Sequence record: MN158206.1 | DNA: 46,880 nucleotides | Origin: Escherichia phage BEK2 | Reading direction: 5' to 3' (one strand) | Shown here: positions 1 through 46,569 of the stretch, piece after piece | Layout: the number at the start of each line of letters is the position of its first letter | Position numbering within the stretch: position 1 is the first letter of the stretch | Made by a program: the position numbers and the translations under genes | Notes under the pieces: generated by a model | Databases searched by the model: none | What the model saw: only the letters and a program-made list of their open reading frames with translations | Told to the model about the DNA's origin: nothing

Positions 1-507
1 ATGAGCAAAGCAGCATTAAAGATGGGCGAAGGAAATTTCAAGGCGCTCTACAACAAGAAGTATGGCGATATTGCTATGGTGGCAATCAACCGCAAGTACA
101 CGCCTGAGGAAGTTTTCGATTTTGCGGTGAGATACTTCTCTTGGGCTGAAAGTGAGGTAATCAAAGCTATTGAGACGGCGGCTTTCCATGGCGTGGTTAG
201 TGAAAGCCTTGTACACAAACCGCGAGTGTTTACATTAACCGGGCTGGCGCTCTTTATGGGTGTTAACATCAATAGATTCGCTCGATGGCGCACTGAGGCT
301 GGATACTCTGATGTGATGGAATTTATTGATAACGTAATCTACGAGCAGAAGTACCAGCTTGGAGTTGCGGGTATCATCAACTCTACCATCGTTGGTAAAG
401 AGCTTGGTATTGATAAACCGCAGGAGATTAAGATTAGCAACAACTCCACAGCTAATGACGTTGATAGTATGAAGGAAGCACTGGAGTCCGTGATTAGTAA
501 GCTATAG
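1..507 (+). CDS. terminase small subunit (putative)
   Basis: 168-aa ORF directly upstream of the HNH/terL pair. ATG at nt 1 is served, across the window junction, by AAGGAGG (46868-46874) and a TGgTATAAT promoter (46847-46855). Assignment by size and position only. Confidence 0.55.
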   Translation: MSKAALKMGEGNFKALYNKKYGDIAMVAINRKYTPEEVFDFAVRYFSWAESEVIKAIETAAFHGVVSESLVHKPRVFTLTGLALFMGVNINRFARWRTEAGYSDVMEFIDNVIYEQKYQLGVAGIINSTIVGKELGIDKPQEIKISNNSTANDVDSMKEALESVISKL

Positions 508-547
508 CACTTATTGTTAAAAGAAGAGGCCCAATCAATGAGATAAT
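504..547 (+). promoter_or_regulatory. box promoter cassette P0
   Basis: ATAGCACTTATTGTTAAA (504-521), 21-nt spacer, GATAAT (542-547). The terS stop TAG (505-507) lies inside the box. A GGCCCA/TGGGCC hairpin spans the spacer. Drives the HNH gene. Confidence 0.55.
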
Positions 548-575
548 GGGCCCAACAAACTAGCGAGGTGGCGAT

Positions 576-1088: not shown

Positions 1089-2652
1089 TTTAATCGTATG
1101 GGATGAGCTGACATACGCAGAAAAGATGGCTATCAAGGCCATCTCTGAGCATAGTTTCGAGGGGTTCTTGCGGTGTTTCTTCCAGATAACTCAGGGCGAG
1201 AGATTCAAAATGAATTGGCATGCGAAGTACCTATGCCGTGTTATAGATGAGATTCTCGAGGGAAAGAGAAAGGATACCATCATAAACGTAGCTCCCGGAT
1301 CAGCCAAAACCGAACTTTTTAGCATTCACTTCCCTGTGTATAGCATGATTAAGATTAAGAAGGTCAGGAATCTTAGTTTGTCGTTCTCTGATTCATTGGT
1401 TAAGCGCAACTCCAAACGCGTCCGTGACCTTATTAAGTCAAAGGAATTTCAGGAGCTCTGGCCTTGCACCTTTGGAACGTGCAGGGATGACGAGATTCAG
1501 GTTCTGGATGAGAATGGCAAAGTTAGGTTTGAGTCTATATCCAAGGCGATGGCAGGACAGGTGACGGGAAGCAGGGGAGGCTACATGACTGACGATTATA
1601 GTGGTTGCATAATGCTTGATGACCCACTAAAGCCTGATGACGCGTTAAGTAATGTAAGAAGAGAGGCTGTCAACATGCTTCTCAAGAACACAATTCGTTC
1701 ACGTCGAGCTAGCTCAGTAAAGGGAAAGGAAACGCCAATACTTTCCGTGCAGCAAAGACTTCATGTTCTGGACACTAGCCACTTCATGGAGTCAGGGCAA
1801 ATGGGCATAAAGTTCGACGTAGTGAAAGTTCCAGCCATAGTCACAGAGGATTACGCCGACACGCTTCCTGATTGGATCAAGCAACAATTTATTGATGATG
1901 TTCTTTCATCACCATTTGTAGAGCGGGATGGGGTTAAGTATTACAGCTACTTTCCGGCAAAGGAGTCAATAGAAGACCTGATGGCCATGTGGGATGCTGA
2001 CCAGTACACGTTCCTTAGTCAGTATCAACAAGAACCAGTAGCACTTGGCGGCAATCTGATTAACGTGGATTGGTTCCAGCGCCTTAGCGATACATTCAGA
2101 CCTCCCGCTAAGTATGATTATCGATTCATCACATGCGATACTGCGATGACTACAAAGAGTTATAGTGACTTCTCTGTACTTCAGTTGTGGGGCTATAAGG
2201 ACGCCAAGATTTACCTGATAGACCAGCGCAGAGGTAAGTGGGAGGCGCCAGAGTTGGAAGCTGAACTGCTGGACTTCGAGAAGAAATCAAGGGCAACCAG
2301 TCAGGCAGATGGCATCCTCCGAAAGATTATCATCGAGAAGAAAGCCTCTGGTATCGGTCTTATTCAATCGGCAGGTAGAGTTATGCGAACACCGATAGAG
2401 CCATACGTGCCGGATAACGACAAGCTAACTAGGGTAATGAGCGCATTGCCACAGATTAAAGCTGGTAACGTAGTTCTTCCCGAGTCAGCGTCGTGGTTAA
2501 ACGGATTGCTTACTGAGGTTGCGGCTTTTACGGCAGATGATTCGCATAAGCACGATGACCAAATTGATACCATGACAATGGCAATCAACCTGGTTCTGAA
2601 CATTGCGGACGATCCTAAGGCGCGACTAATGCGCATAGCGGGAATTAAATAG
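1081..2652 (+). CDS. terL: terminase large subunit
   Basis: Walker A-like VAPGSAKT and Walker B-like CIMLDDPLKPDD. C-terminal acidic nuclease-type motifs (ITCDTAMT, HKHDDQIDT). GGGAGG SD before ATG 1081. The 973 start in the ORF track lies inside the HNH gene. Confidence 0.85.
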   Translation: MSDLIVWDELTYAEKMAIKAISEHSFEGFLRCFFQITQGERFKMNWHAKYLCRVIDEILEGKRKDTIINVAPGSAKTELFSIHFPVYSMIKIKKVRNLSLSFSDSLVKRNSKRVRDLIKSKEFQELWPCTFGTCRDDEIQVLDENGKVRFESISKAMAGQVTGSRGGYMTDDYSGCIMLDDPLKPDDALSNVRREAVNMLLKNTIRSRRASSVKGKETPILSVQQRLHVLDTSHFMESGQMGIKFDVVKVPAIVTEDYADTLPDWIKQQFIDDVLSSPFVERDGVKYYSYFPAKESIEDLMAMWDADQYTFLSQYQQEPVALGGNLINVDWFQRLSDTFRPPAKYDYRFITCDTAMTTKSYSDFSVLQLWGYKDAKIYLIDQRRGKWEAPELEAELLDFEKKSRATSQADGILRKIIIEKKASGIGLIQSAGRVMRTPIEPYVPDNDKLTRVMSALPQIKAGNVVLPESASWLNGLLTEVAAFTADDSHKHDDQIDTMTMAINLVLNIADDPKARLMRIAGIK

Positions 2653-2692
2653 CACGAATTGCTAAACATAAAAGCCAGGGATGGCTTATAGT
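2649..2692 (+). promoter_or_regulatory. box promoter cassette P1
   Basis: ATAGCACGAATTGCTAAA (2649-2666), 22-nt spacer containing an AGCCA/TGGCT hairpin, TATAGT (2687-2692). The terL stop TAG is inside the box. Confidence 0.65.
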
Positions 2693-21714: not shown

Positions 21715-21758
21715 ATAGTATCGCATCCTTGCGATCAGTGTTTAGCAATTAGTGCTAT
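21715..21758 (-). promoter_or_regulatory. box promoter cassette P3
   Basis: Minus strand: ATAGCACTAATTGCTAAA (21758-21741), 22-nt spacer, TACTAT (21720-21715), leader CCATCGAAACGAAA. The box encodes the last five residues (NSTNC) and the stop of the methyltransferase. Confidence 0.65.
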
Positions 21759-22460: not shown

Positions 22461-22504
22461 ATTATACTGCACAAAATTTATTGTTCTTTAGCAATTCGTG
22501 CTAT
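22461..22504 (-). promoter_or_regulatory. box promoter cassette P4
   Basis: Minus strand: ATAGCACGAATTGCTAAA (22504-22487), 22-nt spacer, TATAAT (22466-22461). The Rha stop TAG is inside the box. Confidence 0.65.
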
Positions 22505-23172
22505 TTCTTTTCCAGCAGCAGCTTGATGTCAATGCCGAGATTATTCTCAATCAATCCGGTCAGCGCATCATTCTTTTCTTTAAGAGCGAAGCATTGCGCT
22601 TCATACTTAAATCTTTCCTCCATCTCATTCGAGCGACTAGCCCAACACTGGCGAGCCTCACAAGCCAGCATATCGAGTTTTTCATCGGTATTCTTATCCA
22701 TGAGTAAGATCTCATTTATTCTTTGCTCTGCAACAATGCGCTGGCTCAGGTGTGCATTTTGCGCATTAGCCACACCAAGCATCATTCGAGCCTCTTTTAG
22801 CTCATCAATGCTTACCATCCGGCTGATTACTTCTGCTTGTTTTTTAACTAACGCCTCGAGCTCATGAAGTCGACGGATAACTCTGCGACGAAGAACTACG
22901 CTGTAGCCAGTGATTAGCGTTTCGGTGAGTTCCTTGTTGAGTAAAATCTCAGATGTATAGCCTCGATTATCCGTAAGTACTTGATAATCATCATGACCCA
23001 AATCTGGGGCATCGTTATAATGTAACAATTCATTGATCATTTCCTTTGTGTCGCGAACGACGTGATCATGACGCTTACCTGTCAATTCAGCAATTTCCTT
23101 CGTGCTCATCATGGTTTTTGGCTGTTCTTTGTACGCTTCAATTTTCATTTTAGTCTCTCTTATGCTTTTCAT
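22501..23172 (-). CDS. Rha-family phage regulatory protein
   Basis: STKEIAELTGKRHDHVVRDTKEM is the Rha-domain signature; coiled C-terminal half. ATG 23172 sits in the 3' arm of an 8-bp hairpin (ATGGCTCA/TGAGCCAT), so ATG 23148 or 23112 may be the real start. Confidence 0.7.
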   Translation of the reverse strand: MKSIRETKMKIEAYKEQPKTMMSTKEIAELTGKRHDHVVRDTKEMINELLHYNDAPDLGHDDYQVLTDNRGYTSEILLNKELTETLITGYSVVLRRRVIRRLHELEALVKKQAEVISRMVSIDELKEARMMLGVANAQNAHLSQRIVAEQRINEILLMDKNTDEKLDMLACEARQCWASRSNEMEERFKYEAQCFALKEKNDALTGLIENNLGIDIKLLLEKK

Positions 23173-23978: not shown

Positions 23979-24944
23979 ATGAGCTTTAAGGTTTTTACAA
24001 GGGAGGAACTATCAAACTCGGAGTACCACGCTGAAACTGAACACATCTCAGGTTCCTCACTTGTCGAGATTATTCAGGGTTCACCAGCCAAGTGGAGGTT
24101 TAAGCAACGCAATAGCGATAGCAAGGCTCTTAAGTTTGGAACGCTGAGTCACACGTATATCCTAGAGGGTGACATGTTTGATAAAGAATACCTTCGAGCT
24201 ACAGACCTTGATGCGATTGATGGATTAATTACAAGCCAAGCAGGATTATCAGCAGCACTTAAAAAAGTTGGTGTAGCTGGCACGTCCGGGAAGGGGTATA
24301 GCGAGCTCGTAGAAATGATGTATCGTTCTGGTGAGGATTGGCCTGTTAAATGGTTAATTGAGCAGCAGGAGGGCGCGCAGGCGCTCGTGGAGGGTAAGGA
24401 GTTGGTTAGCGCCGCAGACTATGACAAAGTGATAGCTATGCGTGAGGTTCTTTGCAACATTCCGGAATATGATGCAATTGTGAACAGCGAGACGGCGCAG
24501 AAAGAGTTATCAATATTCGGTGAGATTCTAGGTGTTGGAGTTAAGATTCGAATCGACCACGTAGATGTTATTGATGGTGTGGTTCGGATCACAGATTATA
24601 AAACGACAGCGGACGCAAGCCCAGAAGGATTTGGTAAATCAGCATTCAATCACGGATACCTTGCAAAAATGGCATTACAGCGTGATCTATTTGTTAAGGC
24701 ATTCAACGAGAAGCGCAAGGTTGTTGTAGGATTGCTGGCACAGGAGAAGGTGGAGCCATACTTACCAATGCTGTACACCTTAACTGACGAACAGCTTCGA
24801 ATCGGTAGGTTGCAGTATCTTGAGGCGCTGGCTACTTACAAGAAGTGTAAGGAGCTAGATAGCTGGCCAGGGTACTCTAATGGCATTACAGAGCAAGAGC
24901 TATTAGTTCCTGAGTGGGCATTAAAACAATATAAAGAAATCTAA
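23979..24944 (+). CDS. PD-(D/E)XK recombination exonuclease (RecE/YqaJ-like)
   Basis: IRIDHVDV...VRITDYKT has the D...(D/E)xK arrangement. Sits immediately upstream of ERF and SSB. AAGGGGTGA SD. Confidence 0.7.
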   Translation: MSFKVFTREELSNSEYHAETEHISGSSLVEIIQGSPAKWRFKQRNSDSKALKFGTLSHTYILEGDMFDKEYLRATDLDAIDGLITSQAGLSAALKKVGVAGTSGKGYSELVEMMYRSGEDWPVKWLIEQQEGAQALVEGKELVSAADYDKVIAMREVLCNIPEYDAIVNSETAQKELSIFGEILGVGVKIRIDHVDVIDGVVRITDYKTTADASPEGFGKSAFNHGYLAKMALQRDLFVKAFNEKRKVVVGLLAQEKVEPYLPMLYTLTDEQLRIGRLQYLEALATYKKCKELDSWPGYSNGITEQELLVPEWALKQYKEI

Positions 24945-24988
24945 ATAGCACGAATTGCTAAAACAAGGTGGGATAGCTGAGGTATAGT
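24945..24988 (+). promoter_or_regulatory. box promoter cassette P7
   Basis: ATAGCACGAATTGCTAAA (24945-24962) directly after the stop TAA, 22-nt spacer, TATAGT (24983-24988). Confidence 0.65.
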
Positions 24989-25020
24989 TATACCATCAAC
25001 AACGGACGAGGTTAAAGAAA

Positions 25021-29139: not shown

Positions 29140-29157
29140 ATAGCACGAATTGCTAAG
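29140..29157 (+). promoter_or_regulatory. orphan box copy, antisense to the local operon
   Basis: ATAGCACGAATTGCTAAG on the + strand between two minus-strand genes. Nearest -10-like hexamer is TATAAA (29180-29185) at 24 nt, and it runs straight into the terminator hairpin. Confidence 0.5.
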
Positions 29158-29182
29158 TTGGATTGTAGCATCTTTCGGGTAT

Positions 29183-29204
29183 AAAAAACCTCCCGAAGGA
29201 GGTT
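29183..29204 (-). terminator. rho-independent terminator (UUCG loop on minus strand)
   Basis: Minus strand: AACCTCC-TTCG-GGAGGTT followed by T6. Overlaps the primase stop codon. Confidence 0.8.
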
Positions 29205-30126: not shown

Positions 30127-30164
30127 ATTAATCTATCTCTTAACAAATAAAAAAGGATGTACCT

Positions 30165-30209
30165 ATTATGGCACATCCAATTCTTTACTCTTTAGCTTTT
30201 CGTGCCAAT
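30165..30209 (-). promoter_or_regulatory. box promoter cassette P9 (variant box)
   Basis: Minus strand: TTGGCACGAAAAGCTAAA (30208-30191) right after the stop TAA, 22-nt spacer, CATAAT (30170-30165). A GGATGT/ACATCC hairpin plus a T-run overlaps the -10. Confidence 0.5.
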
Positions 30210-30438: not shown

Positions 30439-30482
30439 ACCATACCTCATCCATGAGAAATGTCTTTAGCTTTTCGTGCTGC
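30439..30482 (-). promoter_or_regulatory. box promoter cassette P10 (inside coding sequence)
   Basis: Minus strand: GCAGCACGAAAAGCTAAA (30482-30465), 22-nt spacer, TATGGT (30444-30439), leader ACATCGAAAGCCGA. The box is translated as AARKAK near the C-terminus of the HTH protein. Confidence 0.5.
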
Positions 30483-30932
30483 CTCGTTAGCGGCCTTAAT
30501 CTTGCGCCATGAGCGACACTCTGGCTTGGTGGCTAATTCTGCATCAGTGACCACGCGCAGCATGTGACGTTTTTTGCAGCGCAGGGTTAGAGGCTTGCCA
30601 TTGCCGTCGAATTGCAGATCTGGTCGGCAGAATGTGGCTCTAAAACCTTCCCCGGTTCGTTTGTAGTAGTTGTGCGATAACTGAGCACCACGTGCGGAAA
30701 TCATGCCGCGCTTAAACCATTCTTCTACAGCCTGTGGTGTTACCTTTAGCTGCTTTGCGATATTCGCTTTTGTGCCGAAGAAATCAAGAACTATATCTAG
30801 TCGCGCGCGTAGTCCGGCTCTTACTTCATCTTTTAAAACGTAGTAGCCTGAAGGTCGTTTGCGTTGTTTTTTGTCTTCAGTGCGGATAGTTCCGTTGTTC
30901 CCGTTGATTGTTCGCTTGTCGACTGTATTCAT
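30447..30932 (-). CDS. HTH DNA-binding protein (Cro/YdaS-like), candidate transcription regulator
   Basis: GTKANIAKQLKVTPQAVEEWFKRG is a helix-turn-helix segment. Basic N- and C-termini. GAGGT SD. Confidence 0.6.
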   Translation of the reverse strand: MNTVDKRTINGNNGTIRTEDKKQRKRPSGYYVLKDEVRAGLRARLDIVLDFFGTKANIAKQLKVTPQAVEEWFKRGMISARGAQLSHNYYKRTGEGFRATFCRPDLQFDGNGKPLTLRCKKRHMLRVVTDAELATKPECRSWRKIKAANEAARKAKDISHG

Positions 30933-30944
30933 TTCATTACCTCA

Positions 30945-30987
30945 GTAGCATTTTTTGTTAAAAGTCATTCTGATTTGATGGTAGTAT
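30945..30987 (+). promoter_or_regulatory. box promoter cassette P11 (variant box) for the helicase operon
   Basis: GTAGCATTTTTTGTTAAA (30945-30962), 21-nt spacer, TAGTAT (30982-30987) with TG two nt upstream. Confidence 0.5.
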
Positions 30988-31014
30988 TGTACTCAATTAA
31001 ACGCTACAAGACAA
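30986..31014 (-). promoter_or_regulatory. sigma70-type promoter for the HTH gene
   Basis: Minus strand: TTGTCT (31014-31009), 17-nt spacer, TACAAT (30991-30986). Its -10 overlaps the -10 of P11 by 2 bp. Confidence 0.5.
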
Positions 31015-33028: not shown

Positions 33029-33444
33029 AAATTACAGACAAAGTTGACTACATTGAGTTTTACCATGGCCCGGTTAAGTCTTGCCCGAAAGAGGATGACG
33101 AGCAAATCTTTTGCTCTGATTGGGTTAAGTATAACTATCCAGAGATGGTATTTTTCCACTGCGTGAATGAGGGTAAGAAAACCATTGGTCAGGCAAGAAA
33201 AGACCAGGCCAAGGGGCTTCTCAAAGGCGTATCAGACTGTATGTTTCTTATTCCCGAATCTATCCGAGGAAAGTACCCTTTCGGAGCCATAGAGCTAAAG
33301 AGGGCTGGGAAGACGCAGGCTAGTCCGGTCAGCGACGAGCAGAAGTCATTCCTTAAAAGCGTAAGAGAATCAGGAGGTTTTGCCGGGGTAGCCTACGGTC
33401 GCGAGGGTTTTCTAGCGGCGTTTAAAGAAATGATTTCAAAATAG
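33025..33444 (+). CDS. VRR-NUC domain nuclease
   Basis: GVSDCMF...GAIELKRAG has the D...ExK arrangement. ATGA overlap with the helicase gene. Confidence 0.7.
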   Translation: MKITDKVDYIEFYHGPVKSCPKEDDEQIFCSDWVKYNYPEMVFFHCVNEGKKTIGQARKDQAKGLLKGVSDCMFLIPESIRGKYPFGAIELKRAGKTQASPVSDEQKSFLKSVRESGGFAGVAYGREGFLAAFKEMISK

Positions 33445-35781: not shown

Positions 35782-35825
35782 ATAGCACTTTTTGCCTAAA
35801 GCATGCCGTAGAAATGCGGCATAAT
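35782..35825 (+). promoter_or_regulatory. box promoter cassette P13 (1-nt insertion variant)
   Basis: ATAGCACTTTTTGCCTAAA (35782-35800) directly after the stop TAA, an ATGCCG/CGGCAT hairpin in the spacer, CATAAT (35820-35825). Confidence 0.5.
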
Positions 35826-35866: not shown

Positions 35867-36043
35867 ATGACTAAAATGATTTATTGCACCAAAAACAATT
35901 CCAAGACCCTGCCATTTACAGTTAACCAGCCGTACAACGCAGAGTACCAGGGCGATGGATATTACAAGATTTATGGAGACGATATGAAGCACATCTTAGC
36001 GCCGATTGATGGTTCGTTGGTTGAATTTATTATCGCTGACTAG
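35867..36043 (+). CDS. hypothetical small protein (FTVNQPY...YGDD family)
   Basis: 58 aa, below the track cutoff. Follows P13 and is followed by a strong terminator. Confidence 0.5.
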   Translation: MTKMIYCTKNNSKTLPFTVNQPYNAEYQGDGYYKIYGDDMKHILAPIDGSLVEFIIAD

Positions 36044-37499: not shown

Positions 37500-37543
37500 A
37501 TAATAACAAAAGCCCACAAGGGGCTTTTAACAAAAGGTGCTAT
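37500..37543 (-). promoter_or_regulatory. box promoter cassette P14 with nested terminator
   Basis: Minus strand: ATAGCACCTTTTGTTAAA (37543-37526) right after the stop TAA, a 22-nt spacer holding a hairpin plus T-run, TATTAT (37505-37500). Confidence 0.55.
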
Positions 37544-37882: not shown

Positions 37883-39466
37883 TCACCCCAGCAGTCGCGG
37901 ATTAATGTAAACCTTATCACCAATCAGGCACGTGTAGTTTTTCTCGTCAAGCATTGGCAGTAGGTGATCTTTAATCTTCGTCATTACCCCAGCCTGAGCC
38001 TCGAACGGCTTAACCTTTCGAGCAGCTTCATATAATGAGCGAATACCAACTACACCCTTGCCGTTCTTTCCTTGCTTGATCAGGATATCAATCAGCTTAT
38101 TCATCTCGGCATTATCGCCAGCGTGACCAGCGGCGTTAGCAGATGAAAGATAAGTCTTGCTAAGTTCATTGAACATAATTACAGCTTCTTGCATGGTATC
38201 AAGCTCAATCTCTCTTGACTTCTGTGGACTCCCGCCATTTGGGTTAAACCAGTTACGCACAGTGTGAAGAACCGCCGCAATCCTGATGGCCTGCTTATCG
38301 AACTTACCCAGGGCGCCGCGCAACATTGTGTGGGAATACTTCCCGCCGTCCGCAAGGTGAGGCTCCATCTCCTGACGTGCGCGGTTAAGATACTTCATTG
38401 CTGAGTTGCTCACTGTCAACTTAACATCTTGCTCATTCATTATTTCATGAACTAATCGGAAATAGTCGGCCTTGAGTCCACCATCAATTGGCTCATATGT
38501 TGAATCTCCATTCTCATCAACAAACACACGCTCGCCCAAAAATGACTTTTCACGCACAAGCAGAAATCGCTCCGACACACCGATACCACGTGCGCCAGCG
38601 TTCATGATTGCATTGATTGTTTCGTCTTGCGCAATTACTGAGATGCAACCCATAGCAACGAAGCTCATGTTGTTCTCTGCGTTCGCACGCGCAATGGACA
38701 CGTTACCAGCATCCCATGCCTTCAGTACAAGTTCGCTGTTCGTCTTCTTGGATCCGTCACCGTACGTCATACCTAGCAGTGAGTTGACGCTCGTCGCCTC
38801 ATCAGAGATAACCGCGAAGTTACCTTGTCGGTTGTTTATTCGTGCCAGACCTTCCGGCGTGGTGTCGGATACAGGGAAAACGATATCACAAAGTTTCTCG
38901 AGCTTTTCCTCAAGCTCCTCCTTCTCCTCAAAAAGAGAAGCCATCTCTGAAGGAGATTTCTCCTGCTTCATCTCTTTGGATAATGCAGATAGTTTGGCCA
39001 TGATCTTCTTGCGCTCACGCTTGCGAACTTCATTAAGACGCTCAGTCTCAGCAATCATTGGAGCAATCGATAGCGAGTTAATTGCTGATTTACCAGTTGA
39101 TGGCGGCTGGCTTGTCACGACGTAGAGCGCAGTTGGTTGTTGGGTTCCATGATACTCAACTGTAAATCGGCCCAGCATCGCAGCGGAAATACACCCCAGG
39201 AAGTGCATGTATGCGGACGACTCAGGAAACTGAACCGAACGAGCTATGTTAGATGACAGTTTGCCAACAACATCAATATCATTACCTAGTGAGATTACGG
39301 GATACTTGTCATTAGCTGCATCAATCTCGACCGGAGCCTTCCAAAATGATTGAGAATGACGATAGCCATTGGCATTGATAGCGACGCGCAGGGGTGGGAG
39401 GTTGTCCGCAGCAGCAATTGCCATAACCTGTTCAACAGACAGTTTATCTTCGTTGAAATCAAACAT
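37883..39466 (-). CDS. P-loop NTPase, DUF3987/YfjI-like (candidate replication initiator/helicase-type protein)
   Basis: 527 aa. Walker A SQPPSTGKSA, Walker B NFAVISDEAT. N-terminal 42 aa and C-terminal ~70 aa are paralogous to ORF 42798-43322. Family name is from recollection and needs an HMM search. Confidence 0.6.
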   Translation of the reverse strand: MFDFNEDKLSVEQVMAIAAADNLPPLRVAINANGYRHSQSFWKAPVEIDAANDKYPVISLGNDIDVVGKLSSNIARSVQFPESSAYMHFLGCISAAMLGRFTVEYHGTQQPTALYVVTSQPPSTGKSAINSLSIAPMIAETERLNEVRKRERKKIMAKLSALSKEMKQEKSPSEMASLFEEKEELEEKLEKLCDIVFPVSDTTPEGLARINNRQGNFAVISDEATSVNSLLGMTYGDGSKKTNSELVLKAWDAGNVSIARANAENNMSFVAMGCISVIAQDETINAIMNAGARGIGVSERFLLVREKSFLGERVFVDENGDSTYEPIDGGLKADYFRLVHEIMNEQDVKLTVSNSAMKYLNRARQEMEPHLADGGKYSHTMLRGALGKFDKQAIRIAAVLHTVRNWFNPNGGSPQKSREIELDTMQEAVIMFNELSKTYLSSANAAGHAGDNAEMNKLIDILIKQGKNGKGVVGIRSLYEAARKVKPFEAQAGVMTKIKDHLLPMLDEKNYTCLIGDKVYINPRLLG

Positions 39467-39539: not shown

Positions 39540-39893
39540 TTACAGGTATTGCGCCTCAAAATGGTACGTCTGGCAAAGAGTGTAAAATCCAACATCCTCG
39601 CTGCGGTAAAGCTGCCAAGCATTACCATCCTCATCGTAAATGTAACCGGCATTTTGCCCTATCCCGGCATGCATAGATACCTGGTAGCGCTTTCCTTCTT
39701 TAAAGTCTTTTTTAACTCCTGACTTGTGGTTAACCTTTGTGCAGTAAAGCGTCTTAGTCTTGACGTACTTACCGCGCTCTTCGAGGTTAACCCATTTGCC
39801 ATCTTTCTTAATCTGCTCCACACCATCTTTAACGCGAGCTTTGTAGAGTACGTTTTCGTTGCTGATCCAGCTTTTAGTAATCGTAGTGGTCAT
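39540..39893 (-). CDS. hypothetical protein (FKEGKRY...YDEDG family)
   Basis: 117 aa, AAGGA SD, first gene after P16. Confidence 0.6.
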   Translation of the reverse strand: MTTTITKSWISNENVLYKARVKDGVEQIKKDGKWVNLEERGKYVKTKTLYCTKVNHKSGVKKDFKEGKRYQVSMHAGIGQNAGYIYDEDGNAWQLYRSEDVGFYTLCQTYHFEAQYL

Positions 39894-39929
39894 TTTGTTT
39901 TCCTTTTCGTGTTTCGTTTCGATGAGATT

Positions 39930-39973
39930 AATATACAGGAAAAGCCCCGAAGGGCTTTAGCAATTAGTGCTAT
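39930..39973 (-). promoter_or_regulatory. box promoter cassette P16 with nested terminator
   Basis: Minus strand: ATAGCACTAATTGCTAAA (39973-39956), a 22-nt spacer containing AGCCC-TTCG-GGGCT, TATATT (39935-39930), leader CATCGAAACGAAAC. The box encodes NSTNC plus the stop of the upstream gene. Confidence 0.65.
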
Positions 39974-40208
39974 TTATTTCCTTGAGTCCAAGTGGCGTTA
40001 TCACTACCTTATACCAAGTTCCAATCTCTGGCTTATTTACATTATATGCCAGCTCTACATAACCTAGCCGAAATAGTTTTGGTATACCTCTGGATGACTT
40101 GCCACAATCACGAATCCTGCCGCGATTAAGGTCATAGCTTATTTGATGAATCTCTCCATTATGAATACAGTGGAGGGTTTTTATTGCGGATTCAGAAATT
40201 TTAATCAC
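39957..40208 (-). CDS. hypothetical protein
   Basis: 83 aa. GTG start in a GTGA overlap with the upstream micro-ORF. C-terminus NSTNC is encoded by the box. Confidence 0.5.
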   Translation of the reverse strand: MIKISESAIKTLHCIHNGEIHQISYDLNRGRIRDCGKSSRGIPKLFRLGYVELAYNVNKPEIGTWYKVVITPLGLKEINSTNC

Positions 40209-41262: not shown

Positions 41263-41300
41263 TTTTATCTCCGGTGTGTTCGTTTCGTTTCGATGAAGTA

Positions 41301-41344
41301 ACTATACGCCATCCGTGGCGGTGAGTTTTAGCAATTCGTGCTAT
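41301..41344 (-). promoter_or_regulatory. box promoter cassette P17
   Basis: Minus strand: ATAGCACGAATTGCTAAA (41344-41327), a 22-nt spacer with a CGCCA/TGGCG hairpin, TATAGT (41306-41301), leader CATCGAAACGAAACG. The box encodes NSTNC plus a stop. Confidence 0.7.
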
Positions 41345-41670: not shown

Positions 41671-41715
41671 ATAATAGCGAATCACACCCGATCGGTCATT
41701 AGCAAAAAGTGCTAT
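41671..41715 (-). promoter_or_regulatory. box promoter cassette P18
   Basis: Minus strand: ATAGCACTTTTTGCTAAT (41715-41698), 23-nt spacer, TATTAT (41676-41671), leader CCATCGAAACGAAG. Confidence 0.6.
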
Positions 41716-41728
41716 TCGTTAGATTTAT

Positions 41729-41816
41729 GGATTGTTGCAGATATTGCAATGATTCACATAATTATTGCACATACAGCAATATTGCTTCAGATGCAATGAT
41801 GTTTTTGATTGTTGCG
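41729..41816. repeat. cluster of ATTGCA/TGCAAT-type short repeats and palindromes
   Basis: GATTGTTGC x2 (41730, 41807), TGCAATGAT x2 (41745, 41792), palindromes ATTGCAAT (41744-41751) and GCAATATTGC (41776-41785). Non-coding. Confidence 0.7.
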
Positions 41817-41905
41817 AAAAGTGAAATGAAGTGGGGAGTGAGCGAATGAAAGATGGATGGACTACCATACAAGTTGATTTTGATTCTGGCTGGGCCATTT
41901 TCACG

Positions 41906-42231
41906 CCTACACGTAACGCCAGTAGCGCGATGTAAGCCAAGGCCAATCGTTACGTGAGTTACGCGCAGCTACGCCCGGACTTACACTATAAGTGCTTAAT
42001 ATATATATATATCTTCTTTCTATTATTATTATTAATATTAATATTATTGTATGTAAGTCGTGTAACGTGGGTCCTAGCGATATCTATATGTTTTTTCCTA
42101 TCAGAATACATTATTGCTATTTTATGTGGGATTTAGCCAGTATGGGGCCATTGCACTCATTTGCCTCGTTACACGCACGACACGAAACTACATTGAGCTA
42201 TAGCTGGGCTGGTGTGCCATTTCGCGTAACG
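41906..42231. repeat. non-coding iteron/AT-rich region B (homolog of 23321-23645)
   Basis: CGTAACG/CGTTACG copies at 41912, 41948, 41958, 42062, 42167, 42225. (TA)n at 41998-42012 and (TAT)n at 42021-42048. A 42-nt block (42189-42230) is 36/42 identical to 23603-23644. Confidence 0.8.
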
Positions 42232-42258
42232 ACCCCCAAAAGTTACCAAAAATTACAC

Positions 42259-42287
42259 TTGACTACATGTGTAAGTCGGGATATGAT
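42259..42287 (+). promoter_or_regulatory. sigma70-type promoter
   Basis: TTGACT (42259-42264), 17-nt spacer, TATGAT (42282-42287). No palindromic box. Confidence 0.65.
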
Positions 42288-42318
42288 GGACTCAACTTAA
42301 ACGAGAGGAGTGATAGAG

Positions 42319-42798: not shown

Positions 42799-43322
42799 TG
42801 TTTGACTTTAACGAGGATAAACTGACAGAAGAGCAGGTTATGCAAGTAGCCATGGCAGATAGCCTTCCACCACTACGTGTTGCAATCAGCGCTAACGGGT
42901 ATCGACAGTCAACGGCGTTTTGGGGTTCGATTGATACCTCAGAGGTGTATAGTGGTGATGAGCTTGGTGTACTGATTAAAATCATCAGGAAAATGGGAGT
43001 TAACGGCAAAGGAGTTGTCGGCATTAGGTCTCTATACGAAGGTGCTCGCAAGGTTAAGCCCTTTGAGGGTAGCAATGGAATCATGGCGCGTATTAAGGAT
43101 GAGCTCATCCCAGCTCTAGAGGAAATTAATATCGCTTGCCTAATTGGAGATAAGATTTATGTCCACCCAGCTATCATTGATGAGTACTGGCAACCCAACT
43201 TCAAAACTTACGAAGGTGAGCACCCCAGTAGACTACCACACCACTTGCGATACAGTGACGATGAGATAATAAAGGCGATTCGGTTCTACTGGGAAGCTAA
43301 ATCACTGCTTAGCGGCGGATAG
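42798..43322 (+). CDS. domain-deleted paralog of the 37883-39466 P-loop protein (N- and C-terminal modules only)
   Basis: First 42 aa are 32/42 identical to the full-length protein. NGKGVVGIRSLYEGARKVKPFE matches its C-terminal module. No Walker motifs. Unique 45-aa tail. Confidence 0.7.
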   Translation: MFDFNEDKLTEEQVMQVAMADSLPPLRVAISANGYRQSTAFWGSIDTSEVYSGDELGVLIKIIRKMGVNGKGVVGIRSLYEGARKVKPFEGSNGIMARIKDELIPALEEINIACLIGDKIYVHPAIIDEYWQPNFKTYEGEHPSRLPHHLRYSDDEIIKAIRFYWEAKSLLSGG

Positions 43323-43362
43323 CACGAATTGCTAAAAGGGGATTCATCCTGACTGGTATAAT
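43319..43362 (+). promoter_or_regulatory. box promoter cassette P19
   Basis: ATAGCACGAATTGCTAAA (43319-43336; stop TAG inside), 22-nt spacer, TGgTATAAT (-10 at 43357-43362). Confidence 0.7.
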
Positions 43363-43392
43363 CCCCACATCAACCACGCGAATGGAAGTTAA

Positions 43393-43524: not shown

Positions 43525-44149
43525 AATTATCATTCTTAACGGACCCGCTTCTATTGGTAAGGACACTATTGGCAACGCGTTATGCTATGATTACCGATGC
43601 ATCAAAACCAGCCTTAAGCGTCCAATGTTTGAAATTGCCGAGTCAATCCTGGGGGTGGAGGCATTCAGTAAGTTCATCACGGCTTATGATGACCGAGATC
43701 AGAAAGAGATGCCTCAGAGCTTCCTTGGTGGCAAGACCTGCCGCGAGTTCATGATCTGGATTAGCGAAACGGTAGTCAAGCCTCTATTTGGCAACCAGCA
43801 ATTCGGTAAGCTGATGAGCGAACATATAAATCTGTGTGATGAAGGATTCACGTTCGTTTGCACTGATGGCGGGTTCACTGATGAAGTCATAAAGCTTGTT
43901 GAAGATGGTCACGATGTTACCGTTGTGCGTCTATTTATGGATGGCAAGACCTTCGCAGGCGATAGTCGTAATTACATCCACATTGAAGAATCTCAGTTCC
44001 ATTACTGCTCGTGGTATCAGGAGTGTGACGTGCATCTAATAAGTGGTGACATTGATGGCGGTGTCCTGGCGGTGGCTGAGGCTTGCGGTATTAGCTCATC
44101 AGTCCCAGAGGTTGATGTTTACGAGTGGGAAGATGGATTGCCCTGGTAA
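43517..44149 (+). CDS. P-loop kinase-like protein (possible dNMP kinase)
   Basis: N-terminal ILNGPASIGKDT Walker A, typical of small nucleotide/nucleoside kinases. GAGGA SD. Substrate not inferable. Confidence 0.5.
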   Translation: MAKIIILNGPASIGKDTIGNALCYDYRCIKTSLKRPMFEIAESILGVEAFSKFITAYDDRDQKEMPQSFLGGKTCREFMIWISETVVKPLFGNQQFGKLMSEHINLCDEGFTFVCTDGGFTDEVIKLVEDGHDVTVVRLFMDGKTFAGDSRNYIHIEESQFHYCSWYQECDVHLISGDIDGGVLAVAEACGISSSVPEVDVYEWEDGLPW

Positions 44150-44193
44150 ATAGCACTTTTTGCCTAACCCTCTTCGGAGGGTTTTGTTATAGT
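44150..44193 (+). promoter_or_regulatory. box promoter cassette P20 with nested terminator
   Basis: ATAGCACTTTTTGCCTAA (44150-44167), CCCTC-TTCG-GAGGG-TTTT (44168-44185), TATAGT (44188-44193), leader CATCGAAAGCAAAC. Confidence 0.6.
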
Positions 44194-44231: not shown

Positions 44232-44324
44232 ATGATTTCTTTACTGATGATTATCCCTGCTGTTATCGCCCTGGGTCTGATGGTTAGTGCTGGTGAGTTC
44301 TACGTCCCAGTCAACAAGAAATAG
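44232..44324 (+). CDS. possible 30-aa membrane peptide
   Basis: MISLLMIIPAVIALGLMVSAGEFYVPVNKK. GGAG SD 8 nt upstream. Stop TAG lies inside the next box. Confidence 0.35.
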   Translation: MISLLMIIPAVIALGLMVSAGEFYVPVNKK

Positions 44325-44363
44325 CACGAAATGATAAGCCGCTCCGGCGGGTTTTGTTATAGT
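44321..44363 (+). promoter_or_regulatory. box promoter cassette P21 (degenerate right half) with nested terminator
   Basis: ATAGCACGAAATGATAAG (44321-44338), CCGC-TCCG-GCGG-GTTTT, TATAGT (44358-44363). Near-duplicate of P20. Confidence 0.5.
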
Positions 44364-44721: not shown

Positions 44722-44855
44722 TTTACATCCACACGTACTACACTGGTAAGTTTAATAGCGTTAAGCATGCTCGAGTTCACGATAGCTACGATAGTGCAAA
44801 GGCTCAATGGTTGGTTCTTGGTGGTGATATTAATTCATATAGAGTCGCTGAATAG
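44718..44855 (+). CDS. hypothetical micro-protein
   Basis: 45 aa. ATGA overlap upstream; stop TAG inside box P22. Confidence 0.45.
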   Translation: MIYIHTYYTGKFNSVKHARVHDSYDSAKAQWLVLGGDINSYRVAE

Positions 44856-44895
44856 CACTAATTGCTAAAACAGTATTGGGGTAATTTGTTATAGT
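44852..44895 (+). promoter_or_regulatory. box promoter cassette P22
   Basis: ATAGCACTAATTGCTAAA (44852-44869), 22-nt spacer, TATAGT (44890-44895), leader CATCGAAACGAACG (44901-44914). Confidence 0.7.
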
Positions 44896-44925
44896 TACCC
44901 CATCGAAACGAACGAGGAAGCAGAA

Positions 44926-45433: not shown

Positions 45434-45572
45434 ATATGTGATTGCATGTGAACGACTGGTTTTCGATATGAAGACTTTCCACTGGTTCATCATTAAGGAT
45501 CTAATTAAGCCTTATAAGCAATGCGTTACGCCAGAGGCATTTATAAAGAACTTCTATAGCACTAAAAGCTAA
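45420..45572 (+). CDS. hypothetical micro-protein
   Basis: 50 aa from ATG 45420 (GGGGTGG SD). The C-terminal YSTKS plus stop is encoded by box P23. Confidence 0.5.
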   Translation: MNFTEYVIACERLVFDMKTFHWFIIKDLIKPYKQCVTPEAFIKNFYSTKS

Positions 45573-45599
45573 ACGCAGTCGCCACGGATGGCATATAAT
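45556..45599 (+). promoter_or_regulatory. box promoter cassette P23 (variant right half)
   Basis: ATAGCACTAAAAGCTAAA (45556-45573), a 22-nt spacer with the same CGCCA/TGGC hairpin as P17, TATAAT (45594-45599). Confidence 0.6.
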
Positions 45600-46492: not shown

Positions 46493-46569
46493 GCTCGAGT
46501 GGCGAAAGTGGATATCGCAAGAGACTTCTAATCTCTAGATTGCTGGTTCGAATCCAGCCTCGGGCGCCA
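46493..46569 (+). tRNA. tRNA-Arg (anticodon UCU), CCA encoded
   Basis: Hand-folded cloverleaf. Acceptor GCTCGAG/CTCGGGC (one G:U). D stem GCGA/TCGC. Anticodon stem AGAGA/TCTCT with loop CT-TCT-AA (anticodon at 46527-46529). 5-nt variable loop. T arm GCTGG-TTCGAAT-CCAGC. Discriminator G plus CCA. Confidence 0.9.

Follow-up and report, generated by a model that had tools for sequence, protein, structure and literature searches.

Terminator-like hairpins nested in the spacer of a candidate -35-less promoter of the T1-like Escherichia phage BEK2

The 46,880-nucleotide (nt) sequence of Escherichia phage BEK2 (MN158206.1), analysed here at full length and referred to as the window, carries about 22 cassettes built on a repeated box, ATAGCAC-N3-TTGCTAAA. 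The cassettes lie on both strands, each oriented toward its downstream gene. On balance, we favour reading one of them, a 44-nt element at positions 39930-39973 on the minus strand, as an intrinsic terminator nested inside a promoter, since it places a GC-rich hairpin and a short T-run in the spacer between the box and a -10 hexamer. Terminator-grade signals are present in about five cassettes. Across the family, the hairpins mostly lack a U-tract and adjoin or enclose the -10.

The window matches Escherichia phage BEK3 (MN158207.1; Drexlerviridae, Braunvirinae) at 100% identity; this is a virulent siphophage of E. coli of the T1/Rtp-like type. Cassettes were compared with those of T1, BEK6, AugustePiccard and IMG/VR contigs; as scanning for the box pattern returned many single chance matches among the real T1-like contigs, a -10 was required as a filter.

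A terminator-like hairpin within the 39930-39973 cassette

Read on the minus strand from 39973 to 39930, the element is ATAGCACTAATTGCTAAA-GCCC-TTCG-GGGC-TTTTCCTG-TATATT. Its parts are as follows.

39956-39973 (minus): box ATAGCACTAATTGCTAAA, a T1-family direct repeat with the dyad TAGCA-N5-TGCTA, fitting the consensus described for phage TLS.
39941-39958 (minus): class A hairpin AAAGCCC-UUCG-GGGCUUU inside the 22-nt spacer; minimum free energy (MFE) -10.2 kcal/mol, z -2.4, 5 of 200 shuffles as good; terminator discriminant d = +14.
39936-39943 (minus): T-run and tail TTTTCCTG, the putative U-tract of the nested terminator, running into the -10.
39930-39935 (minus): -10 hexamer TATATT, beginning 38 nt past the box start.

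The 5' arm of the hairpin shares the A-run at the end of the box, and the T-tract score nT is 4.4, against 4.4 to 5.8 for stand-alone terminators. The predicted start is the A of a cAtc motif at about 39923, upstream of a 117-aa gene whose ATG lies at 39893. In BEK6 the site reads AAGTCC...GGGCTT, a variant that pairs through G.U, and AugustePiccard carries a variant longer by 1 nt. Upstream of the box lies an unannotated ORF of 83 aa, which is not similar to the AugustePiccard gene at the equivalent position.

The box is not new. A 21-nt direct repeat (DR1-18), aaATAGCACnnnTTGnTAAAA, was published in the 2024 re-annotation of TLS (PMC11447400), where 21 copies lie in the orientation of transcription about 76 nt upstream of start codons; the same source notes it in T1, Rtp and Rogue1, leaves its function undecided between a stoperator, an enhancer-binding site and an UP-like element, and lists three canonical sigma-70 promoters only (PMC11447400). 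The box used here matches this consensus, and motif, orientation and start-codon distance (~76-80 nt) agree; at the 39930-39973 cassette, the sequence and co-orientation match, and box start (39973) and ATG (39893) are 80 nt apart.

The box and a -10 hexamer at fixed spacing

The heptamer ATAGCAC occurs 19 times in the window against 6.3 expected, a count equalled by none of 100 shuffles. In almost all window cassettes a -10-like hexamer (TATAGT, TATAAT or TATTAT) begins 38 nt past the ATAGCAC start, that is, 22 nt past TTGCTA, with a spacer of 22 ±1 nt. The same holds among the relatives, where 136 cassettes have an offset of 38, 15 an offset of 37 and 12 an offset of 39, with the remaining offsets at background level, bearing out the original prediction that the spacer is free in sequence and fixed in length. 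Alignment by column gives the consensus ATAGCACtaaTTGcTAAAa-N-TATaaT.acc.cAtc.aaa, in which T-12, A-11 and T-7 are conserved as in a classical -10. The conserved A of cAtc, 6-7 nt past the hexamer, is the likely transcription start.

No -35 element is present: the best TTGACA match at 16-18 nt from the -10 averages 2.6 of 6 positions, and at least 4 of 6 are matched in about 10% of cassettes. About half of the cassettes that are hairpin-less or of class A have a TG at -15/-14. If transcription starts at offset 50, the centre of the dyad TAGCA-N5-TGCTA, at offset 8, would be at about -42; the dyad halves are unequally conserved (ATAGCAC more than TTGnTA). A factor-to-RNA-polymerase geometry, which had been proposed to explain the constant spacer length, is plausible in that it is compatible with the lack of a -35 and a dyad at about -42. 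Cassettes also occupy divergent junctions, where they head transcription units with no other promoter; as promoters must exist at such junctions, we count their presence there in favour of a promoter role.

Two other assignments were rejected. A sigma-54 promoter (TGGCAC-N5-TTGC) differs from the box, TAGCAC-N3-TTGC, in having GG (at -24) for AG and a gap of 5 rather than 3 nt. Neither TTGCTA nor a hidden hexamer in the spacer can be taken as a true -35, the former lying 22 nt from the -10 and the latter averaging 2.6 of 6 matches at best.

The leader past the -10 is itself strongly conserved (TAcyTCATCGAAACGAAAC, at offsets +44 to +62 of most cassettes, e.g., 39911-39929 and 41282-41300, both minus). 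It forms an A/C-rich, unstructured 5' UTR common to many genes.

In class II and other -35-less promoters, an activator such as CRP or FNR binds at -41.5, Mu Mor or C near -43.5, or lambda CII at pRE; extended -10 promoters belong here too. The cassettes resemble these in having a dyad at about -42 (with the start placed as above), no -35, a strict distance to the -10 and frequent TG at -15/-14. They differ in that the box is unlike any of those sites, is asymmetrically conserved and has only a candidate factor. T4 middle promoters likewise combine a phage box in place of the -35 with a sigma-70 -10; there, the MotA box TGCTTtA lies about 12 nt from the -10, centred at -30, and acts with AsiA. 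Although TTGCTAAA loosely recalls the MotA box, TTGCTA lies 22 nt from the -10, and no match to MotA or AsiA was found among 10 scanned proteins.

Terminator-grade signals in class A cassettes

The hairpins fall into three classes. In class A (39973 minus, 44150 plus, 44321 plus, 37543 minus; cassettes are named by box start), the stem begins in the A-run at the box end and is followed by a UUCG-type loop, TTTT(G/C) and then the -10. In class B (2649, 35782, 41344 minus, 45556, 21758 minus, 30482 minus), the stem adjoins the -10 with no T-run after it. In class C (e.g., 44877-44902, 43338-43366, 528-552, 24967-24997), the 5' arm lies in the spacer and the 3' arm between the -10 and the start. 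The remaining class A cassettes are as follows.

44150-44193 (plus): class A cassette; box 44150-44167; -10 TATAGT 44188-44193; MFE -10.5 kcal/mol, z -3.4, 1 of 200 shuffles as good; d = +22.
44166-44183 (plus): its hairpin AACCCTC-TTCG-GAGGGTT; tail TTGT, whose TGt forms an extended -10.
44321-44363 (plus): borderline class A cassette; box 44321-44338; -10 TATAGT 44358-44363; MFE -8.7 kcal/mol, z -1.5, 23 of 200 shuffles as good, not significant alone; d = -2.
44339-44350 (plus): its hairpin CCGC-TCCG-GCGG; tail GTTTTGT.
37500-37543 (minus): class A cassette; box 37526-37543; -10 TATTAT 37500-37505; MFE -11.0 kcal/mol, z -3.4, 1 of 200 shuffles as good; d = +12.
About 37507-37529 (minus): its hairpin AAAAGCCCC-TTGTG-GGGCTTTT; in the BEK6 ortholog stem and loop bases are altered and pairing is kept.

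A U-tract directly 3' of the stem is found in the class A tails (TTTTCCTG, TTTTGT, GTTTTGT and TTTTGT) and in the 30208 cassette (T6), whereas the class B hairpins at 2649, 35782, 41344, 45556 and 21758 and the class C hairpins (with tails such as TCGAAACG) have none. It had been predicted that the T-run leads into the -10; this is so in the four class A cassettes and in no others. In three of the four, the TG of the T-run doubles as an extended -10.

Terminator strength was scored with a d'Aubenton-Carafa-type discriminant, d, which combines hairpin stability with T-tract quality; in our own, uncalibrated implementation with ViennaRNA energies, d is +22 at 44150, +14 at 39973, +12 at 37543, +45 at 30208 and a borderline -2 at 44321. 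Class B hairpins score -15 to -55, the 11 stand-alone terminators of the same genome +20 to +64, and 1% of random 60-nt windows exceed 0. The four spacer hairpins and the 30155-30178 hairpin of the 30208 cassette thus look like intrinsic terminators. The four in the spacer are weaker than ordinary ones, their U-tract being cut short by the -10.

Class A and the 30155-30178 hairpin share with intrinsic terminators of E. coli and its phages an A-run, a GC stem of 5-9 bp, a UUCG-type loop, a T-run and a position just past a stop codon. They differ in that the -10 cuts the U-tract to about 4 T and scores are lower than those of stand-alone terminators in this genome; classes B and C lack the U-tract altogether.

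Stability, strand bias and context of the hairpins

The hairpins listed in the original prediction are all present, at or within a few nucleotides of where it had placed them. Folding was compared with 200 dinucleotide shuffles of each sequence. By its own terms, the original prediction would have fallen had the spacers folded no better than shuffled ones; this outcome was not seen, and the observation stands. Of the 23 spacers in the window, 8 fold at -5 kcal/mol or below, compared with 7.6% of genomic 24-mers (binomial p = 2e-4), and 6 at -7 kcal/mol or below, compared with 2% (p = 5e-6). Three hairpin-less cassettes fold at about 0 kcal/mol.

The relatives give the same picture. Among 135 unique spacers, 21% fold at or below -10 kcal/mol, compared with 1.5% of chimeras, in which the 5' half of one cassette is joined to the 3' half of another, and 0.5% of shuffles. 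Extended to the 40-nt region between box end and start, the comparison gives 45% for real cassettes, 12% for chimeras, 4% for shuffles and 8% for genomic windows. An unbiased register scan finds preferred hairpin centres at 29.5-30.5 (class B) and 37.5-38.5 (class C), several-fold above the chimera controls, and the arms change in a compensatory manner between orthologs (T1 tacccgcgaaagcgggta versus AugustePiccard tagccgcgaaagcggcta).

The hairpins also have a strand. For those in the spacer, the sense fold is the more stable in 46 cases and the antisense fold in 11 (p = 3e-8; many cassettes are orthologs, so this and the next two p-values overstate independence), and for class C the numbers are 83 and 13 (p = 5e-13). 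GNRA and UUCG loops occur in the sense orientation. This bias argues against cruciforms or protein-binding palindromes. Context matters as well: at divergent junctions, where no co-directional gene lies upstream, the folding of cassettes is at the background level (mean -5.8 kcal/mol, 2 of 11 reaching -8), whereas the remaining cassettes average -9.5 kcal/mol, with 51 of 83 reaching -8 (Fisher p = 0.009). No internal hairpin is present where a stand-alone terminator precedes the cassette (10502 and its orthologs; T1 40308), which suggests that the hairpin replaces a terminator. Together, these patterns point to hairpins that are under selection and have an RNA-level role on read-through transcripts.

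Several observations weigh against the nested-terminator reading. The junction cassette at 41715 (minus) still folds to -9.8 kcal/mol, the hairpins at 44321, 41344 and 45556 are individually no better than shuffles, and the orthology noted above inflates significance. The U-tracts of the nested terminators hold only 4 T, and 44321 is borderline. The literature searched yields no transcript 5' or 3' end data for any T1-like phage. Classes A, B and C swap upstream of a single orthologous gene (window 39540-39893, minus): the cassette is class A in BEK3, BEK6 and AugustePiccard, class B in the IMG/VR relative L096, class C in T1 and hairpin-less in one relative, L010. If the classes are interchangeable, what they share may be something other than termination, given that B and C have no U-tract; it could be a stable RNA hairpin past the stop codon, serving leaky termination, pausing or 3'-end protection.

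Classes B and C and the 30155-30178 hairpin

The commonest class, inverted repeats flanking the -10 (class C), was overlooked in the original prediction. The stems that it had called weaker are hairpins under selection; they have no U-tract and fail the discriminant, scoring -15 to -55. It had further described a GGATGT/ACATCC stem at 30171-30186 overlapping CATAAT; the structure is in fact a class C hairpin of 24 nt at 30155-30178 (minus), which has CATAAT in the loop and a T6 behind it. Representative features are given below.

2673-2686 (plus): class B AGCCA-GGGA-TGGCT adjoining -10 TATAGT 2687-2692; no T-run; box start 2649; MFE -7.9 kcal/mol, z -2.9, 1 of 200 shuffles as good; d = -17.
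35803-35822 (plus): class B ATGCCG(UAGAAAU)GCGGCAU overlapping the start of -10 CATAAT 35820-35825; box 35782-35799; MFE -11.7 kcal/mol, z -4.3, 0 of 200 shuffles as good; d = -15.
41307-41320 (minus): class B CGCCA-CGGA-TGGCG adjoining -10 41301-41306; box 41327-41344; MFE -6.7 kcal/mol, z -1.7, 15 of 200 shuffles as good, not significant alone; d = -24.
45581-45592 (plus): weak class B GCCA-CGGA-TGGC; box 45556-45573; -10 45594-45599; MFE -4.8 kcal/mol, z -0.65, 43 of 200 shuffles as good, not significant alone.
21721-21734 (minus): class B TCGCA-AGGA-TGCGA adjoining -10 TACTAT 21715-21720; box 21741-21758; MFE -6.7 kcal/mol, z -3.5, 2 of 200 shuffles as good.
44877-44902 (plus): class C inverted repeat TGGGGTAATT/AGTTACCCCA flanking -10 TATAGT 44890-44895; box 44852-44869; -14.2 kcal/mol sense, -10.3 antisense.
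43338-43366 (plus): class C GGGGATT...AATCCCC enclosing -10 TATAAT 43357-43362; box 43319-43336; -13.4 kcal/mol.
528-552 (plus): class C GGCCC...GGGCC enclosing -10 GATAAT 542-547; box 504-521.
30191-30208 (minus): degenerate box TTGGCACGAAAAGCTAAA of the cassette 30149-30208, upstream of the primase gene.
30155-30178 (minus): strong hairpin GGATGTGCC-ATAATA-GGTACATCC with CATAAT in the loop, then T6 30149-30154; MFE -17.2 kcal/mol, z -5.3, 0 of 200 shuffles as good; d = +45.

The hairpin at 45581-45592 is kept in AugustePiccard and BEK6. In T1, the ortholog of the 30155-30178 hairpin is annotated as a terminator (35930-35971), and it is one of four rho-independent terminators in the T1 GenBank record that lie inside cassettes: those at 38973-39001, 39998-40024, 41980-42007 and 35930-35971 belong to boxes starting at 38953, 39976, 41956 and 35995, respectively. 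In TLS, terminator T62 (39643-39660) begins one base past repeat DR12 (39622-39642; PMC11447400, Table S1).

Five class B hairpins have in common the motif CA-N-GGA-TG (2676-2683 plus, 41310-41317 minus, 45583-45590 plus, 21724-21731 minus and 30448-30455 minus), at a constant offset (28-35 past the box start), GGA occupying the loop and the stems covarying. The motif resembles the CsrA SELEX ligand RUACARGGAUGU, though ACA is 100% conserved in the SELEX set and only CA is here. The window has 17 copies of CANGGATG, where 5.9 would be expected.

Stop codons within the box and a proposed mechanism

Most cassettes have the stop codon of the upstream ORF at one of two places relative to the box start: it ends either at +3, as the TAG of ATAGCAC, or at -1, as a TAA just before the box. 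The TAG of box 2649-2666 (plus) is the stop codon of the large terminase gene and that of box 504-521 (plus) the stop codon of the small terminase gene; the TAG of box 44321 ends a 30-aa ORF at 44232-44324. Stop codons in this position are found at 2650-2652, 505-507, 33442-33444, 43320-43322, 44147-44149 and 24942-24944, so coding sequence and regulatory repeat overlap systematically. As box, -10 and leader are constrained, what is left free beyond the stop codon is the 22-nt spacer together with 6 nt past the -10, exactly where the hairpin arms lie. We infer that compaction around the box-embedded stop codon accounts for the nesting and for all three classes; the upstream stop codon as part of the box, the main reason for nesting, had gone unremarked in the original prediction.

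Building on the sequences, fixed spacing, stability excess, strand bias, context dependence and stop-codon overlap, we infer promoter activity, a start site, a box factor, actual termination and a role for classes B and C along the following lines. The 44-nt element at 39930-39973 would hold two overlapping signals, a box promoter and the Rho-independent terminator of the upstream gene. The promoter would probably be used by the host sigma-70 RNA polymerase, aided by a box-binding protein in a position like that of a class II activator. The terminator stem-loop would fill the sequence-neutral spacer, and its U-tract would enter the -10 and supply the extended -10 TG in three of four cases. Under the same logic, read-through transcripts across the family would carry a set of RNA hairpins, of which class A would be canonical though shortened, and probably leaky, terminators. 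Those of classes B and C would most likely terminate weakly, cause pausing or protect the 3' end of the upstream mRNA.

The original prediction saw each cassette as stopping the upstream transcript, restarting transcription and thereby insulating its small gene block. This reading is partly supported, as terminator-like hairpins are present in only about 5 of 22 cassettes. In line with what the insulation idea would predict, the hydrophobic 30-aa ORF noted above (MISLLMIIPAVIALGLMVSAGEFYVPVNKK, 44232-44324, plus), which has a Shine-Dalgarno sequence and is unannotated in the BEK3 record, is bracketed by two class A cassettes. Since the nested terminators are weaker than the 11 stand-alone ones, such insulation is probably leaky.

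Alternative explanations

The strongest competitor, which we regard as possible though clearly less probable, is that all three classes act mainly as intercistronic mRNA stabilisers or processing barriers: the AU-rich -10 and leader would be cut, for example by RNase E, the hairpin would block 3' exonucleases and termination would be incidental. Hairpins without a U-tract prevail (48 of class B versus 5 of class A in one count, and 97 of class C in another), class B fails the terminator discriminant and the classes swap at one orthologous position, all of which suit this explanation; the sense bias and the dependence on an upstream co-directional gene suit any RNA-level role. What it leaves unexplained is that class A and the 30155-30178 hairpin combine a canonical A-run, GC stem, tetraloop and T-run and score above 0 against a 1% background, and that cassettes behind stand-alone terminators have no internal hairpin. 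Nor is there evidence of processing sites. Known intercistronic stabilisers are REP-type hairpins or the 3' hairpins left at T7 RNase III sites. Like these, classes B and C are stable, strand-specific, free of a U-tract and placed just past a cistron; unlike them, they lack a repeated REP sequence and offer RNase III no long double-stranded RNA, and a site within a promoter is unusual.

An extension of the nested-terminator reading, in which termination and restart are coupled, seems unlikely to us. Polymerase would be kept on the DNA after termination, caught by a box-bound Cro-like activator and restarted 10-15 nt downstream, while hairpins without a U-tract, being absent from locally initiated RNA, would mark read-through RNA. 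Host RNA-binding proteins or RNases would then handle the two transcript populations of a gene differently; the tagging hairpins would include the class B subset with the CsrA-like CA-N-GGA-UG loop. A terminator a few nucleotides from a promoter is a layout in which RNA polymerase kept on the DNA could restart, as in recycling and facilitated re-initiation after intrinsic termination (the subject of PMC11347151); the likeness is purely conceptual.

It is improbable that the cassette is no promoter at all, the box being a stoperator-like or nut/put-like DNA or RNA signal that controls elongating polymerase at the next hairpin and the -10 an AU-rich tail. Stoperators or enhancer sites were proposed by the TLS authors (PMC11447400), the box is always co-oriented with transcription, as in the stoperators of mycobacteriophage L5 (asymmetric sites at which a repressor blocks elongation in a temperate phage), and overlaps stop codons, and on inspection of the sequence it could fold as a 5-bp RNA stem in which the TTGCTA/TTGTTA variants retain G-C or G.U. 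Yet the 44321 box variant TGATA disrupts that stem, and 35-40% of cassettes offer no hairpin to act on. The TAnnnT at a fixed 22 ±1 nt, with T-12, A-11 and T-7 conserved in the classical manner and cAtc following 6-7 nt on, and the cassettes that head divergent transcription units with no other promoter also speak against it, and the strict spacing from box to -10 points to initiation rather than to an L5-type stoperator. TLS, moreover, is described as virulent (PMC11447400), and no repressor is annotated in BEK3, BEK6, AugustePiccard or T1.

Quite improbable, too, is a DNA-level role for the hairpin as part of the promoter, whether as a cruciform, a pre-melted -10 loop comparable to the hairpin promoters of phage N4, where a virion RNA polymerase recognises the extruded hairpin, or a palindromic binding site that tunes initiation. 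The class C centre at offset 37.5-38.5 corresponds to about -12, where a loop would expose the first -10 bases, and about 60% of cassettes have a hairpin. However, 35-40% have none, the position relative to the -10 varies, and the arms covary instead of being conserved, so that no protein site is indicated. G.U pairs favour the sense strand (e.g., -15.3 versus -5.6 kcal/mol), which disfavours a two-strand cruciform. At divergent junctions, where the promoter must still work, the hairpins are at background level. No phage RNA polymerase appears in the annotation tables of BEK3, BEK6, AugustePiccard and T1, and none is reported for TLS. On strand asymmetry, variable position and background folding at the junctions, cruciform and N4-like DNA hairpins are disfavoured.

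Chance complementarity in GC-richer intergenic spacers is scarcely credible, for although 3 of 10 stems are individually no better than dinucleotide shuffles, the window-wide enrichment (p = 2e-4 to 5e-6), the chimera and register controls, which lie far below real cassettes, and the compensatory and G.U changes in orthologs led us to reject it.

Relation to published descriptions

The single components, namely the repeat and some of the terminators, were previously known. The T1 'transcripton' description of Roberts et al. 2004, as far as it is summarised in PMC11447400, is a close known system. The TLS paper lists repeats and terminators apart; it mentions neither a -10 fixed at 22 nt nor a stop codon inside the repeat, and describes no nesting, hairpin classes or strand bias (PMC11447400). 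The fixed -10, the nesting, the stop codon within the box, classes B and C and the strand bias are not in the accessible literature; a full-text search for 'ATAGCAC' gave unrelated primer matches only, no direct example of a published terminator-within-promoter precedent was found in the searched literature, and an Rfam scan of the window returned nothing but one tRNA.

Candidate box factors and neighbouring features

As a lead only, a 161-aa protein (30447-30932, minus) is a candidate box-binding factor. It belongs to phrog_2856, is the homolog of T1 ST23 and is conserved across T1-like contigs. Its AlphaFold model (mean pLDDT 88) comprises a Cro-like helix-turn-helix domain, similar to the Cro structures of Xfaso1, N15 and P22 (TM-score about 0.7), and an unmatched C-terminal domain; a structure of this kind cannot tie the regulator to the box. 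The gene is preceded by a sigma-70-like promoter, TTGTCT-17-TACAAT (30986-31014, minus), one of few in the genome, which overlaps the box cassette of the helicase gene (30945-30987, plus) back-to-back. In TLS, promoter P57 and repeat DR11 are adjacent on opposite strands (PMC11447400), and we take this to be the equivalent locus. A Rha/Ant-like protein (22501-23172, minus) is a second candidate, likewise as a lead only.

A perfect box, ATAGCACGAATTGCTAAG, lies at 29140-29185 (plus) between the minus-strand tail fibre and primase genes, with TATAAA about 24 nt downstream. Oriented antisense to the primase gene, it faces the 3' end of that gene and runs into the terminator that lies at 29187-29204 on the minus strand; it could be an antisense promoter or a relic. 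Between the divergent early gene blocks, a non-coding stretch of about 575 nt (41725-42300) holds TTGCA/TGCAA-type repeats, a (TA)n run, ATT/AAT repeats (~41990-42060) and a near-consensus sigma-70 promoter, TTGACT-17-TATGAT (42259-42287), and may be an origin or control region. The tRNA gene at 46493-46566 (plus) scores 63 bits against Rfam RF00005, and its AugustePiccard counterpart is annotated as tRNA-Arg (AGA).

A homing endonuclease gene (576-1088, plus) lies between the small and large terminase genes, just past cassette 504. BEK6 and AugustePiccard have other small ORFs or homing endonuclease genes at cassette-flanked positions, which suggests that cassette boundaries are insertion hot spots.

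Implications

The system described here, in which a putative activator-type, -35-less promoter overlaps intrinsic terminators or intercistronic hairpins, brings no new principle, as promoter-adjacent terminators and activator-type promoters are both well known. T1-like phages (Drexlerviridae) are very common coliphages for which no map of transcript starts and ends was found in the searched literature, and the published annotation has about three canonical promoters per genome and a 21-nt repeat left unexplained. If the repeat is taken for the upstream half of a -35-less promoter with a fixed 22-nt spacer, and the hairpins for 3' signals of the upstream gene, testable coordinates and a candidate regulator follow. 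One stretch of 45 nt can hold a stop codon, a regulator site, a terminator, an extended -10 and a -10. Such compact terminator-promoter parts could serve synthetic biology, and the rules that govern them would improve annotation across this phage family.

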